A stretch of 64,000 bases of DNA, from positions 352,001 through 416,000 of the forward strand of contig CAVSQW010000006.1 of the NCBI GenBank assembly GCA_963730185.1, written 5' to 3'. Positions 1-8,458 of the stretch are shown here, one piece after another (within the stretch, counting starts at the first letter, position 1; every line of letters begins with the position of its first letter). Position numbers and translations under genes: made by a program. This DNA comes from an uncultured Gemmatimonadales bacterium (GTDB lineage: Bacteria > Gemmatimonadota > Gemmatimonadetes > Gemmatimonadales > GWC2-71-9). The notes beneath the pieces are model-generated. The model ran no database searches, was not told the origin of the DNA, and was given only the letters and a program-made list of their open reading frames with translations.

Positions 1-211
1 GCGGAAAGCTTCCGCATGCCGGACTGCAGTGCATTGATCTCCGGCAGCACCGGCAGGGCGTCGAACGACCGGATCAGCTCCGCCAGGTTGCCGGGAACGA
101 AGGTGTAGACCACCGGCTCGCCGGTCTCGGCGCCCGCTCCAGCCGCTCGAAATGCTCCGCGATCATCTCCTTCTGGAGCACCATCGAGCGGTCCTTCAGG
201 GCCTCCGCCAT
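1..211 (-). CDS. bcrB: benzoyl-CoA reductase (class I) subunit B, 5' part; runs off the window; 1-nt frameshift near 133
   Basis: MAEALKDRSMVLQKEMIAEHFERLER, then in the shifted frame ETGEPVVYTFVPGNLAELIRSFDALPVLPEINALQSGMRK, matching the Thauera-type BcrB/BadE N-terminus; TAATG overlap with the bcrC stop. Confidence 0.88.
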
Positions 212-1377
212 TATGCACCTCCCCACAGCTTGATCGAGTCGGAGAACGTGCCTGCCTGCTCCCGGTACTGTTGGAACTGCCCCGTGTTCTCCGAATACTT
301 GAAGGCGATGCACGGGATGCCCGCCGCCTCGGCGCCGGTCCGCAACATCGGCTGATCGAGAAGGGCGGGGTCACAGAAGCTCGGGGCGGCGAAGATGATC
401 CCGTCGGCCCGCGCGGCCGCGACCCGCTCCCGCATCAGGCGCCGCTTGCCGGCGGGGTCCGGCTCGTACAGCACCGAGGTGTGGAGGTTGTTGCCCACCA
501 GCGCCTCGGCGAGCGCTCGCACCGGATCACCGTCCAACGAGACGTCGCCCTGGAGGAACCGATTGCCGAGCACAAAGTCGTCGTCGACGATGTAGCAGCC
601 GGCCCGCTCGATCGACTTGATCAGGCCCAGAGGCGGCTGCTCGCAGAACGCACCCGTCACCACGACCCGGCTGTTGTCCCGGAGCCGGCCCGGCTCCTCC
701 GCCACCGCTTCGAGGTAGCGGCTCGCCTGGCTCAGGAACTCCGATGCCGGCGCCACCTCACCCGCCCGCATCAGCAGATAGAGCTCTTCGCTGGGGACGT
801 CCGCCGGTCGCTCCCGCCGGGCGTCGTAGAGCGAGCGCACCATGCGACGGACCTCGTTGTACAACGCGAGCGAGCCGCGGAGCTCGGACTCGGTGGGCGG
901 CCGCCCCGACCGCTCCCCGAGATCGGCGATGACGTGCCGCAGCTCGGCTTCCCAGAAATCGGTCGCCAGGGCGCGATCGGGCGCCTGAGGAACGTCCATG
1001 TACCGGACATAGAGGTCCGGATAGAGCAGCTTCCAGATCCCGGAGAGGTTCCGGATGACGTCGCAGGTCGACGGGAAGAGAATCGCCGACAGGAAATCGA
1101 GCCGCCCGGACTGGGCCAGCTCGATCACCGACCGCGGGAGGTGACAGATATAGGACTGATAGAAGGCGTCGCCTCGGATGATCTCGAGACGGTCGCCGCC
1201 GCCGTGGATCCCTACGGGATGGTAGCCACAGGCGTGCAGCAGCTCGCGGGGAGCATAGACCGGCAGGTAGCCACCGGCCAGGCGGCCGGGCTCCTCGGCC
1301 AACCAGCTCCGGACCGAGGTGAAGTCGAGGTCTTCGTACAGGCCCCGAGCCCAATCAACCACAGTGGCTCGCGACAC
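211..1377 (-). CDS. bcrC: benzoyl-CoA reductase (class I) subunit C
   Basis: LYEDLDF, GDAFYQSYICHLPRS, FPSTCDVIRNLSG, FCEQPPLGLIKSIE, AAPSFCDPALL and REQAGTFSDSIKLW are BcrC/BadD motifs; GTG at 1377 with GGAGG upstream. Confidence 0.93.
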   Translation of the reverse strand: MSRATVVDWARGLYEDLDFTSVRSWLAEEPGRLAGGYLPVYAPRELLHACGYHPVGIHGGGDRLEIIRGDAFYQSYICHLPRSVIELAQSGRLDFLSAILFPSTCDVIRNLSGIWKLLYPDLYVRYMDVPQAPDRALATDFWEAELRHVIADLGERSGRPPTESELRGSLALYNEVRRMVRSLYDARRERPADVPSEELYLLMRAGEVAPASEFLSQASRYLEAVAEEPGRLRDNSRVVVTGAFCEQPPLGLIKSIERAGCYIVDDDFVLGNRFLQGDVSLDGDPVRALAEALVGNNLHTSVLYEPDPAGKRRLMRERVAAARADGIIFAAPSFCDPALLDQPMLRTGAEAAGIPCIAFKYSENTGQFQQYREQAGTFSDSIKLWGGA

Positions 1378-1466
1378 AGCCCGTGCCTCCGATCTTGCAA
1401 CGGGCCGTCCGGAGCACCCCACCCCACCCCCCCGACTCGCCAACCCCTGCCGGCCCGGACGGGCCC

Positions 1467-5326: not shown

Positions 5327-7006
5327 CGACGGCCACCGCCCGCGGCTCGGAGCCAAGGATCGACTTCCAGACCCGGCCGGACGACTACCGGCACTGGAGG
5401 CTCGAGATCGACGGGCCGATCGCCTTTCTCACCATGGCCGTGTCGGAGGCCGGCGGCCTGTTTCCCGGCTACGAGCTCAAGATGAACTCGTACGACCTGG
5501 GCGTCGACATCGAGCTCCACGACGCGGTGCAGCGGCTCCGCTTCGAACACCCGGCGGTCAAGGTGGTGGTGCTCCGGTCCGCGCTGGAGCGGGTCTTCTG
5601 CGCCGGCGCGAATATCCGGATGCTCTCGCAGGCGAGCCACCCTCACAAGGTCAACTTCTGCAAGTTCACCAACGAGACCCGGAACGCGATCGAGGACGGC
5701 GGGCGCCGAGAGCGGTCAGCGCTACCTGGCGGCGGTGAGCGGCAGCGCGGCGGGCGGCGGCTACGAGCTCGCCTTGGCGGCCGACCACATCATGCTGGTG
5801 GACGATCGGAGCTCATCGGTCTCGTTTCCCGAGACGCCGCTGCTCGCGGTGCTACCGGGGACCGGCGGCCTCACCCGTCTGGTCGACAAGCGCAAGGTCC
5901 GCCGCGACCGGGCCGACGTGTTCTCGACCCTCGAGGAAGGCATTCGGGGCCAGCGGGCGGTGGCGTGGCGGCTCGTCGACGAGGCGGTCCCCAAGTCGGC
6001 CTGGGACTCCGCCGTCCGCGCTCGCGCCCTCGAGCTGGCGGACCGGTCGGATCGTCCGGACGGCGCCAGCGGCGTGGTGCTCCATCCGCTCCAGCGGACC
6101 TTCGGCGCCGACCGGGTGAGCTACCGCTACGTCGAGGTCGAGATCGACCGCGCCGGACGCCTCGCCCATCTTCGAGTACGGGGTCCCGCCGAATCGGCGC
6201 CGGCATCCCCGGAGCAGATCGCGGTCGAGGGCGATCGGTTCTGGCCGCTCGCCCTGGCTCGGGAGCTGGACGACGCCATCCTCCACCTCCGGCTGAACGA
6301 GCCGGAGATCGGTCAGCTCCTGCTGCACACGAGCGGCGACCCCGTGGCGGTGCAGTCGTACGATGCCCTGCTCGAGGCGGGCGTGGGGGACTGGCTGGTG
6401 CGCGAGATTCGCCTTCTCTGGAAGCGGGTGCTGAAGCGGCTCGACCTGACCTCCCGTACTCTGATCGCGTTGATCGAGCCGGGCAGCTGCTTCGCGGGAA
6501 CGCTGGCCGAGCTGGCGTTCGCGGCCGATCGGTCGGTGATGGTGGATGGCACCCTGAGCGGCGACCCCTACCCCGCCCCGGTCCTGGTGCTGGGCTCGAC
6601 CAACTTCGGGACCTACCCCATGAGCAACGGACTCTCCCGACTCGCGACCCGATTCCTGGGCGAGCCCGAGAGCGTCGGGCGCGCCCGGGAACGGCTTGGT
6701 GAGCCGCTCGACGCCGAGTCCGCCGACACGCTCGGGCTCGTGACCTTCATCTTCGACGACACCGACTGGGCCGACGAGATCCGGATCATGCTGGAGGAGC
6801 GCGCCAGCTTCTCGCCCGACGCGCTCACCGGCATGGAGGCCAATCTCCGCTTCGCCGGACCCGAAACGATGGAAACCAAGATCTTCGGACGCTTGACCGC
6901 CTGGCAGAACTGGATCTTCCAGCGACCCAACGCGGCCGGCGACGAGGGCGCGCTCAAGCGCTACGGCACGGGCGTGCAGCCGACCTACGACCGGAAGCGG
7001 GTGTGA
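5323..7006 (+). CDS. boxC: 2,3-epoxybenzoyl-CoA dihydrolase; one extra base near 5698 splits the ORF
   Basis: YELKMNSYDLGVDIELHDAVQRLRFEHP, HKVNFCKFTNETRN, ERASFSPDALTGMEANLRF, IFGRLTAWQNWIFQRPNA are BoxC motifs; removing one G restores ESGQRYLAAVSGSAAGGGYEL. Confidence 0.92.
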
Positions 7007-7009
7007 TCG

Positions 7010-8458
7010 ATGACCGACTATCTCAACGTCGACTACGACGGCTTGATCCCGAACAACGTCGATCTCAACGGCGACGAGCGGGTCAAGAAGGCGCTCGAGA
7101 AGTGGCACCCCGGGTACATCGACTGGTGGATGGACATGGGCCCGGAAGGGTTCCAGCAGGCCCTGGTCTACCTCCGCACCGCCGTGGGCGTCGGCTCCAG
7201 TGGTTGGGCCAAGTTCGACTACGTGAAGATGCCCGAGTACAAGTGGGGCATTCTGCTCGCCCCCAAAGTCGAGGGCCGCACCGTGCCGTTCGGCGCCAGC
7301 CGGGGCGAGCCCGCGTGGCAGGAGGTGCCCGGCGAGCACCGAGCCATGCTCCGCCGCCTGATCGTGATTCAGGGCGACACCGAGCCGGCGTCGGTCGAGC
7401 AGCAGCGCCACCTGGGCAAGACCGCCCCCTCGCTCTACGACCTGCGCAATCTGTTCCAGGTCAACGTCGAGGAGGGGCGGCACCTGTGGGCGATGGTCTA
7501 TCTGCTCCAGAAGTACTTCGGCAAGGACGGCCGTGAGGAAGCCGGAGAGCTGCTCCGCCGCCGCTCCGGCGACGCCGACACGCCCCGGATGCTGGGGGCG
7601 TTCAACGAGCAGACCCCGGACTGGCTCTCGTTCTTCATGTTCACGTTCTTCACCGATCGTGACGGCAAGATGCAGCTCGAGGCCCTGGCCCAGTCGGGCT
7701 TCGACCCGCTGTCCCGAACCTGCCGGTTCATGCTCACGGAAGAGGCCCACCACATGTTCGTGGGCGAGACCGGGGTCGGTCGGATCATCCAGCGGACCTG
7801 CGAGGCCATGCGCGACGCCGGGATCGACGACCCCTACGACGTGGCCCGGGTCAGGCGCCTCGGCGTGATCGACCTGCCGACCATCCAGAAGAAGGCCAAC
7901 CTCCACTTCTCGCTCACCCTCGACCTCTTCGGGTCCGAGGTCTCGACCAACGCGGCCAACGCGTTCAACGCCGGGCTCAAGGGCCGCTACCGGGAGGACA
8001 AGCTGGACGACGATCACCGGCTCGAGTCGGAGACGTACGTCGTGCTCCGTCCGGTCGATGGCGAGGTCCGCGCGATGGACGTGCCCGCCCTCTCCGCCCT
8101 CAACATGCGACTTCGCGACGACTACGTGCGCGACTGTCAGAAGGGCATCGATCGCTGGAACCGGGTCATCGCCACGACCGGGGTCGACTTCCAGATCCGC
8201 CTCCCCCACGTCGCCTTCCACCGGCAGATCGGGGAGTTCAAGACCGGGCACTTCGACCTCGACGGCCGCCCGCTCGCCGACCCGGACTGGGAAGCCCGCC
8301 GCGACCAGATGCTGCCCAACGGCGACGATCAGTCGTTCATCGAGGGCCTGATGAGCGGGTCGGTTCGGGAGCCCGGCCTCTTCGCGGGGTGGATCGCGCC
8401 GCCGAGGGTCGGGATCGACAACCGGCCCGGCGACTTCGAGTACGTCAAGATCGTCTGA
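7010..8458 (+). CDS. boxB: benzoyl-CoA 2,3-epoxidase diiron subunit
   Basis: IPNNVDL, QGDTEPASVEQQ, VNVEEGRH, MLTEEAHH diiron ligands, FTFFTDRDG. Confidence 0.96.
   Translation: MTDYLNVDYDGLIPNNVDLNGDERVKKALEKWHPGYIDWWMDMGPEGFQQALVYLRTAVGVGSSGWAKFDYVKMPEYKWGILLAPKVEGRTVPFGASRGEPAWQEVPGEHRAMLRRLIVIQGDTEPASVEQQRHLGKTAPSLYDLRNLFQVNVEEGRHLWAMVYLLQKYFGKDGREEAGELLRRRSGDADTPRMLGAFNEQTPDWLSFFMFTFFTDRDGKMQLEALAQSGFDPLSRTCRFMLTEEAHHMFVGETGVGRIIQRTCEAMRDAGIDDPYDVARVRRLGVIDLPTIQKKANLHFSLTLDLFGSEVSTNAANAFNAGLKGRYREDKLDDDHRLESETYVVLRPVDGEVRAMDVPALSALNMRLRDDYVRDCQKGIDRWNRVIATTGVDFQIRLPHVAFHRQIGEFKTGHFDLDGRPLADPDWEARRDQMLPNGDDQSFIEGLMSGSVREPGLFAGWIAPPRVGIDNRPGDFEYVKIV

Follow-up and report, generated by a model that had tools for sequence, protein, structure and literature searches.

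The stretch of DNA analysed here, referred to as the window, comprises 64,000 nucleotides (positions 352001-416000) of contig CAVSQW010000006.1 (C6) of the source genome G000, and at its left end genes of a class I benzoyl-CoA reductase (bcr) lie next to genes of the oxygen-dependent epoxidase route of benzoyl-CoA degradation (box). The bcr and box block forms a 26-kb island, in which a bcrCBAD cassette conserved in Gemmatimonadales is joined to a hydrolase-boxC-boxB unit. Gene content, synteny, the presence and position of a palindrome shared by both arms, and the occurrence of one TetR clade at both kinds of locus are directly observed. With respect to their meaning, we lean towards the reading that the palindrome is the operator of the TetR repressor encoded in the cassette, which would likely switch both routes with aroyl-CoA.

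A palindrome at the predicted promoters of both arms

The palindrome TCGAAC-N4-GTTCGA is found in the upstream regions of both arms and again before the benzoate-CoA ligase gene, located on a different contig, C8. The core GAAC-N4-GTTC of operator 1 (1476-1487) is overlapped by predicted promoters on both strands, and the predicted promoter of the box genes ends 8 bases before the second site, placing operator 2 just downstream of its -10 element. In the entire window the core occurs only twice (at 1476 and 4386), at exactly these two promoters. Taken alone this count is weak evidence, as 0.73 copies are expected by chance and 14 of 100 shuffled sequences reach two. Since the core also shows no enrichment in the genome as a whole (43 copies, compared to 43-150 for spacers of 2-6 bases), it is rather position and flanks that carry the operator signal. 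When the 5.27 Mb of G000 were scanned with an operator matrix trained on 32 relatives' sites, using three shuffles as control, the three highest scores were obtained for the spacer between bcrC and the gene for a 3-hydroxyacyl-CoA dehydrogenase fused to an enoyl-CoA hydratase (HCDH-ECH; 29.7), for the box promoter (27.6) and for the region upstream of the ligase (21.9), the shuffles peaking at 13-16. A fourth match (19.5, G000:C5:165199), close to the end of its contig, adjoins no gene evidently concerned with aromatic compounds.

The palindrome is likewise conserved in other genomes, which are related to each other, so that the following counts are not independent events. It is present in the bcrC-HCDH spacer of all 14 genomes with the cassette, in 20 of 21 scanned metagenome loci (of 27 with bcrC), and about 60-360 bases upstream of tetR in all 12 box loci in which this stretch is included; the bcr loci of G040 and G062 lack it. 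In nine aligned bcrC-HCDH spacers having a mean identity of 40%, palindrome and promoter elements are the main conserved parts. The TetR proteins from box loci, from bcr cassettes and from G000 form one clade (25 rows, 96/97 support), to which KstR2/PaaR-like structures are nearest. A TetR gene and a conserved palindrome at its putative target promoters thus occur together, and from conservation and position we infer that the protein binds the palindromes, which makes them the likely candidate operator of the cassette's single TetR repressor.

The same palindrome also precedes tetR in all three loci with a gene for a short BoxB-like protein (L109:6900-15500, L111 and L116). Their tetR-led operons encode this protein (34% identity, 235 bits) together with a thiolase, an aldehyde dehydrogenase, enoyl-CoA hydratases and an HCDH, and several genomes with the short BoxB-like gene hold in addition a second class I reductase type at an unlinked site.

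According to the reading preferred here, aroyl-CoA would release TetR from three promoters and induce both routes together. In the absence of oxygen, the reductase, fuelled by ATP and by ferredoxin that is probably reduced by 2-oxoacid:ferredoxin oxidoreductases, would make the dienoyl-CoA, the Dch-, Had- and Oah-like enzymes would open the ring, and HCDH-ECH and the cassette thiolase would account for the β-oxidation of the bcr arm. In the presence of oxygen, BoxB and BoxC would open the ring and Paa-type enzymes (PaaZ-, PaaH- and PaaJ-like) encoded on the contig would probably finish the degradation. BoxB would have to draw its electrons from something other than BoxA, the simplest candidate being a general ferredoxin. 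The box unit likely moved beside the bcr cassette, leaving its ligase pair on C8 and losing its own tetR, as the tetR of the cassette would have made it redundant. A bolder version holds that one TetR turns on Bcr and BoxB without a separate oxygen sensor or BoxA, that both share pools of benzoyl-CoA and reduced ferredoxin among which oxygen partitions the flux, that BoxB shields Bcr, and that Bcr, BoxB and the short BoxB-like oxygenase belong to one order-wide regulon; this we consider doubtful.

Two other kinds of control were considered. A LexA/SOS box was rejected, given the absence of such a palindrome upstream of lexA in G000 (C15, 702339), the gene being preceded by a direct repeat, GTTC-N7-GTTC, that presumably resembles the alphaproteobacterial LexA box. 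With respect to FNR, a scan of L002 returned five matches (≤2 mismatches; 1.4 expected; five reached in 1 of 200 shuffles), all of which lie in coding regions and none at either promoter, and these were not taken to indicate FNR control.

Gene content and setting of the island

Gene identities were assigned by NCBIfam model scores relative to each model's cut-off and by Pfam matches. The features are, in window coordinates:

1-211, minus strand: 5′ part of bcrB (catalytic subunit of class I benzoyl-CoA reductase), first frameshift near 128
211-1377, minus strand: bcrC, intact (TIGR02263, 481 bits, cut-off 421)
1467-1519, both strands: divergent sigma70-like promoters (HCDH-ECH, plus strand, 1467-1495; bcrC, minus strand, 1519-1491) and candidate operator 1
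1588-3609, plus strand: HCDH-ECH (Pfam, synteny)
3610-3833, no strand: joint between bcr cassette and box block, not a repeat; 3712-3953 unbridged by the contigs listed from two runs
3834-4322, plus strand: MaoC-type dehydratase (Pfam), box-associated in relatives
4350-4397, plus strand: sigma70-like promoter of hydrolase-boxC-boxB (4350-4378) and candidate operator 2 (core 4386-4397)
4502-5326, plus strand: alpha/beta hydrolase (Pfam), present in 45 of 80 named boxB loci and likely corresponding to the lactonase-type gene that box clusters contain
5323-7006, plus strand: boxC (2,3-epoxybenzoyl-CoA dihydrolase) in two pieces, frameshift near 5697 (TIGR03222, 213 + 662 bits, cut-off 712)
7010-8458, plus strand: boxB (diiron subunit of benzoyl-CoA 2,3-epoxidase), intact (TIGR03225, 862 bits, cut-off 499)
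8510-9151, plus strand: S-adenosylmethionine-dependent methyltransferase, right end of the island, not seen in box or bcr loci of relatives and probably a passenger
9194-14384: conserved right flank with genes for an M20 peptidase, MoeB-rhodanese, MoaD-like, threonine-synthase-like and Fpg-like proteins, of which we take the MoeB-MoaD-synthase trio to resemble a sulfur-carrier cysteine synthesis module

The order and identities given in a preliminary description of this DNA, in which bcrC and bcrB diverge from HCDH-ECH and MaoC, followed by hydrolase, boxC and boxB, hold. For bcrC, GTG at 1377 is the likely start, the start of the longer open reading frame (1509) falling upstream of the predicted promoter. 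Beyond the left edge of the window the bcr operon runs on along the minus strand for 17 kb to C6:334971 (about window position -17030), comprising first the rest of bcrB, bcrA, bcrD, a GNAT gene, a 4-hydroxybenzoyl-CoA reductase-like remnant and tetR (C6:347429-348080), then genes for a thiolase, an Oah-like protein, an SDR, a Dch-like protein, a PanE::HGD-D fusion and an activase, and finally those for a second HGD-D, a second activase, a CoA ligase, Had and a hemerythrin. The bcrA, bcrD, dch-, oah- and had-like genes that the description had expected there are thus present; of the two others, the ligase turned up on C8 and a ferredoxin gene is missing from the island.

All four subunits of the putative class I reductase are encoded in one operon in the order C-B-A-D, bcrA and bcrB being in pieces, and BcrC, BcrD (359 bits, cut-off 313) and the intact BcrB orthologue of G307 (679 bits, cut-off 487; pieces in G000 193 + 391) exceed their cut-offs, with BcrA just under. 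BcrB keeps the three cluster cysteine motifs and the catalytic acid Glu, as read by eye against the BzdO pattern, with no counterpart of BzdO His131 at that spacing. The pieces of Had score 186 + 156 bits, together reaching the cut-off of 339, and the G039 orthologue passes. The short Oah-like protein (L001:13248-14204; 318 aa), scored about equally by the Oah, BadI and MenB models, has a C-terminal tail with four cysteines that resembles a zinc ribbon (DUF7577 match).

In the box arm, BoxB aligns to PDB 3PER (E 2e-196) with identical residues at the diiron ligand positions, and boxC is intact in congeners (885 bits for the G017 orthologue). A stand-alone boxD is lacking. C6 carries a PaaZ-like gene about 41% identical to BoxD-type proteins, and a homologue 74% identical to that gene passes the BoxD model. 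The contig also carries a PaaH-like dehydrogenase and a 3-oxoadipyl-CoA thiolase (PcaF/PaaJ-type) over cut-off, and just left of the island paaA over cut-off with paaB/C/D-like open reading frames (L259:13600-16261; C6:329606-332261). Judged by these assignments, Paa-type genes elsewhere on C6 could serve the Box arm. Both arms of the island are probably functional.

With respect to the reality of the join, the genes flanking the island (C6:333797 and the M20 gene at C6:361215) are direct neighbours in the congener G010 and lie near each other in G007, G013 and G016. In the latter three, M20 has the orientation of boxB and is found 20-29 kb downstream of it, and in G025, G307 and L117 it comes one gene after ECH. 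Since each arm is thus found near M20 in relatives, both appear to be native to this chromosomal neighbourhood in the family. The tetranucleotide distances of the island equal the genome median, its spacers are not repeats, and the contamination of G000 is 0.37%. Independent contigs from two soil runs bridge bcrC-HCDH, MaoC-box promoter, operator-hydrolase and hydrolase-boxC, and one run contains contigs of both arms at 93-97% identity.

The host is likely a Gemmatimonadota bacterium of the order Gemmatimonadales, in agreement with the non-proteobacterial, Gemmatimonadota-like origin that had been proposed. Among named genomes, the best BoxB matches (best 80 of 597) are to Gemmatimonadales records (83-85%) and then mostly to Alphaproteobacteria; of nine PanE-fusion homologues with an organism name (among 120 of 392 homologues), seven are from Gemmatimonadota and two from Acidobacteria; and the flanking genes are up to 63% identical between G000 and a Gemmatimonas-titled locus, compared to 30-46% for a Bradyrhizobium locus. 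The genome has genes resembling those for PFOR and KorA, four genes of the COX1 family and, below cut-off, one that resembles nosZ, a set that fits a facultative lifestyle.

Comparisons with relatives show which arm owns which gene. In the order-level set of 401 genomes, bcrC is found over cut-off in 18 and boxB in seven, and only G000 has both, so that the search for bcr-box synteny in related genomes that had been suggested came back empty. No second genome with both was found in the phylum samples either (boxB in 5 of 401, bcrC in 17 of 401, overlapping with the order sample), and the adjacency is lineage-specific. Within the genus, 14 of the 21 other genomes have boxB and none has a Thauera-type bcrC. 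In the congeners G004 and G010 (L106, L107) a more distant four-subunit reductase precedes the lower half of the cassette, from the oah-like gene to the ligase, boxB of G004 being on a separate 3.9-kb contig. Cassette layout was examined in 16 of the 17 other genomes with bcrC: 14 have the cassette with divergent HCDH-ECH, and G040 and G062 have had-oah-dch-bcrCBAD instead. In metagenomes, HCDH-ECH adjoins bcrC in 27 of 80 loci and box genes in none, and no bcr genes were seen in 80 named boxB loci, many loci being short. By this gene distribution HCDH-ECH belongs to the bcr arm; MaoC groups with the box loci and not with HCDH-ECH, copies 79% and 73% identical adjoining box in G017 and G003. 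The box locus of congeners has the order ligase, acyl-CoA synthetase, tetR, hydrolase, boxC, boxB; in G000 the two ligases stay together on C8, and hydrolase-boxC-boxB resides on C6 without tetR. Trees of BcrC and HCDH (a quick version in the latter case) nest G000 in the Gemmatimonadales cassette clade, a placement compatible with vertical descent as well as with transfer.

Alternative explanations

A number of observations weigh against a shared operator controlling two functional routes. The regulatory part of the preferred reading is drawn from sequence, and the matrix ranking is partly circular, as the matrix derives from a pattern first noticed in G000. The adjacency is known from one genome only and was not seen in the 400 other genomes of the order, and none of the contigs listed (16 of 57) bridges 3712-3953 at the ECH-MaoC joint, where one short X2 contig matches 3750-3805 but not the preceding 94 bases. 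Concerning electron supply, there is no ferredoxin gene in the island (one small 7Fe-type candidate is found on C9), and boxA was not found in G000 (82% complete), with no match over cut-off in any of the 61 genomes searched (G000 and 60 relatives), for which reason the box arm is not classed as a canonical BoxABC system. A PaaE-type reductase as a stand-in for BoxA was rejected, since none exceeds the cut-off in 22 genomes of the genus, and the two diiron epoxidases BoxB and PaaA therefore seem to be without their usual reductases. In the bcr arm, BcrA stays below the cut-off of 578 (pieces 93 + 476; intact orthologue 567), as do the Dch-like (148, cut-off 292) and Oah-like (194, cut-off 464) proteins, although these are the best-scoring families for both. 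Six frame changes, which the preliminary description had overlooked, affect key genes of the island (one each in had, bcrA and boxC, three in bcrB), with two more in the benzoate-CoA ligase; relative to the genome-wide rate the six of the island are a modest excess (P=0.036), the background of C6 takes in dispensable genes, and the contigs of relatives do not extend over the boxC break and the first bcrB break. Finally, the loss of the 4-hydroxybenzoyl-CoA reductase-like genes is real, so that the cassette has lost parts.

The preliminary description had envisaged an integrated, oxygen-flexible module, in which HCDH-ECH serves the lower β-oxidation of both arms and BoxB possibly also removes oxygen to protect Bcr. 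Adjacency and shared palindrome fit co-expression, a hemerythrin gene ends the cassette, and ECH and HCDH genes are at times part of Box operons elsewhere (PMC6449761). However, HCDH-ECH was found in none of the 21 congeners, 14 of which have boxB, and beside box in none of the 80 metagenome loci; a shared lower β-oxidation is therefore unsupported. PaaH-like, PaaZ-like and 3-oxoadipyl-CoA thiolase genes are available to the Box arm on the same contig, and the adjacency is not conserved across the order. We consider such a module unlikely.

Alternatively, the reductase arm might act mainly on substituted aroyl-CoA, in which case the arms would not be alternatives for one substrate. This would account for the divergent, low-scoring Oah- and Dch-like proteins, the marginal BcrA, the extra SDR and dehydratase-like module and the 4-hydroxybenzoyl-CoA reductase-like enzyme in the cassettes of relatives. 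However, scores over the benzoyl-CoA reductase cut-offs were obtained for BcrC, BcrD and the intact BcrB orthologue, an Hcr-like enzyme would itself yield benzoyl-CoA, and the same operator precedes benzoate-CoA ligase, all of which gives this possibility little chance.

The frame changes could also be real and the island decaying, in which case the strain would be losing its benzoate metabolism. This would fit the broken bcrA, bcrB, had, boxC and ligase genes, the excess of breaks over the genome rate, the separation of the box unit from the ligase and one genuine deletion. The latter concerns the 4-hydroxybenzoyl-CoA reductase-like genes, which in relatives sit between bcrD and tetR (932 bits, cut-off 995) and of which G000 retains an alpha-subunit remnant of 50 residues (72% identity; L001:16140-16370, C6:348190-348345), with no close second copy in the genome (best match 33%); a contig of a near relative also passes from tetR to GNAT without them. 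In the orthologues that G000 shares with congeners, however, 24 frame changes were counted in 240 kb (16 of 181 genes, about 9%), and 12 in 50.6 kb of C6 (6 of 37 genes), genes below 55% identity or 50-60% coverage being excluded; six in about 24 kb fit the C6 rate (P=0.50). The genes leuS and holA, which are essential, are split likewise. Short-read contigs of near relatives are without the extra base at three sites, two of them in bcrB and one in bcrA (among 12 of the 13 indel rows), the pieces of split genes hold 68-91% identity to intact orthologues, and promoters and operators are intact. Given that leuS and holA are broken as well and that three of the extra bases do not occur in near relatives' contigs, the island frameshifts are very probably assembly errors, and decay is improbable. 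Accordingly, of the possibility raised earlier that bcrA and bcrD might be absent or pseudogenised, absence is excluded, both being present, and the single frameshift in bcrA is most likely an assembly error; pseudogenes reported from this assembly are to be read in the light of frame changes in about 9% of its tested genes.

A chimeric join between 1.4 and 5.3 kb, which the preliminary description had named as fatal to it, is unlikely given conserved flanks and composition, even with 3712-3953 unbridged: an assembly chimera at 3610-3833 would explain that gap, an arrangement unique among the sampled genomes and the many indels of the assembly, but is the least probable alternative, as both flanks map to one conserved locus, each arm lies near M20 in other family members, the joint has typical composition and no repeat, and contigs of both arms with 93-97% identity come from one run.

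Comparison with known systems

Compared to the Thauera type of class I benzoyl-CoA reductase, the bcr arm has the same gene order C-B-A-D, model scores over cut-off for BcrC, BcrD and the intact BcrB orthologue, and the catalytic Glu and three Cys motifs by eye against BzdO, the reductase types and active-site residues being described in PMC11971306. It differs by the lack of a ferredoxin gene in the cluster, by the divergent Oah-like (318 aa) and Dch-like proteins, by the embedded PanE::HGD-D, the divergent HCDH-ECH and the TetR in the cassette, and by its likely Gemmatimonadales host. The box arm resembles the Box system of Aromatoleum (Azoarcus) evansii (BoxA, BoxB, BoxC, BoxD, BoxR) in BoxB, BoxC, hydrolase and MaoC, whereas boxA over cut-off, a stand-alone boxD and BoxR are lacking and BoxB is of the alphaproteobacterial type. 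MaoC-type (COG2030, in BoxR regulons) and hemerythrin genes are known from benzoyl-CoA clusters elsewhere (PMC6449761).

As to regulation, only one regulator, along with one ligase, is described for Thauera and Magnetospirillum, and in Azoarcus sp. CIB BoxR and BzdR cross-regulate, so that one effector-sensing system is said to cover both pathways (PMC6449761). These are XRE plus shikimate-kinase proteins binding TGCA repeats, whereas the candidate in G000 is a TetR with the operator TCGAAC-N4-GTTCGA; with a BoxR-like sequence as the one query, the match in G000 (an incomplete genome) extended over only 151 residues at 36%, and no BoxR/BzdR-type regulator was recognised by this query. MbdR of Azoarcus sp. 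CIB and PaaR of Thermus share with the G000 protein the TetR family, an operator overlapping the promoter and a likely CoA-ester inducer. MbdR has another operator (ATAC-N10-GTAT) and controls only the anaerobic mbd genes (PMC4424350), and it is not among the 60 matches listed for the G000 TetR.

The view that the two routes form separate clusters in the studied Betaproteobacteria is overstated, as reductase subunits are reported within the box cluster of A. evansii, and five ligase loci (AzCIB_4632, Tharo_1132, Tharo_1138, A. evansii and SUTH_01659) are labelled 'hybrid' in a table-level annotation (PMC10803450). According to the same text, the Thauera bcr cluster lies 179 kb away, and the aroyl-CoA used by those reductases is not tested in it. 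The 'hybrid' loci resemble G000 in having box genes and reductase subunits in one ligase neighbourhood, whereas in G000 a full cassette abuts box and the ligase lies elsewhere. Benzoyl-CoA degradation genes in metagenome-assembled genomes of Gemmatimonadota are mentioned without detail in PMC10581226, and both routes are mentioned for other uncultured groups (PMC12008989; bioRxiv 10.1101/2025.11.25.690425). In the open-access literature, subscription journals not being covered, no paper on this bcr-box linkage or operator was found. Co-location and single regulators thus have precedent in Betaproteobacteria, and the TetR operator is the new part; physical adjacency, having precedent and being seen in one genome here, matters less. 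Anaerobic and aerobic benzoyl-CoA routes, read here as complete, are placed in one Gemmatimonadota genome, with a candidate regulator and operator that differ from BoxR/BzdR and are open to direct test. If TetR does bind both sites, this would be a second, independent solution for coordinating both routes, and the motif would help to locate aromatic-CoA genes throughout a group that is abundant and for the most part uncultured.

The PanE::HGD-D fusion, two activases, the second HGD-D and the CoA ligase occupy L001:3510-11680 (C6:335500-343700) inside the cassette. PanE and HGD-D are fused in all 13 relatives checked and in at least 120 database proteins, the module is closest to HadB, and the fused HGD-D domain is without the cluster cysteine motifs. 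Through this module, aromatic 2-oxoacids may be channelled into the cassette by way of cinnamoyl-CoA, comparable to a route hypothesised in PMC13416013.

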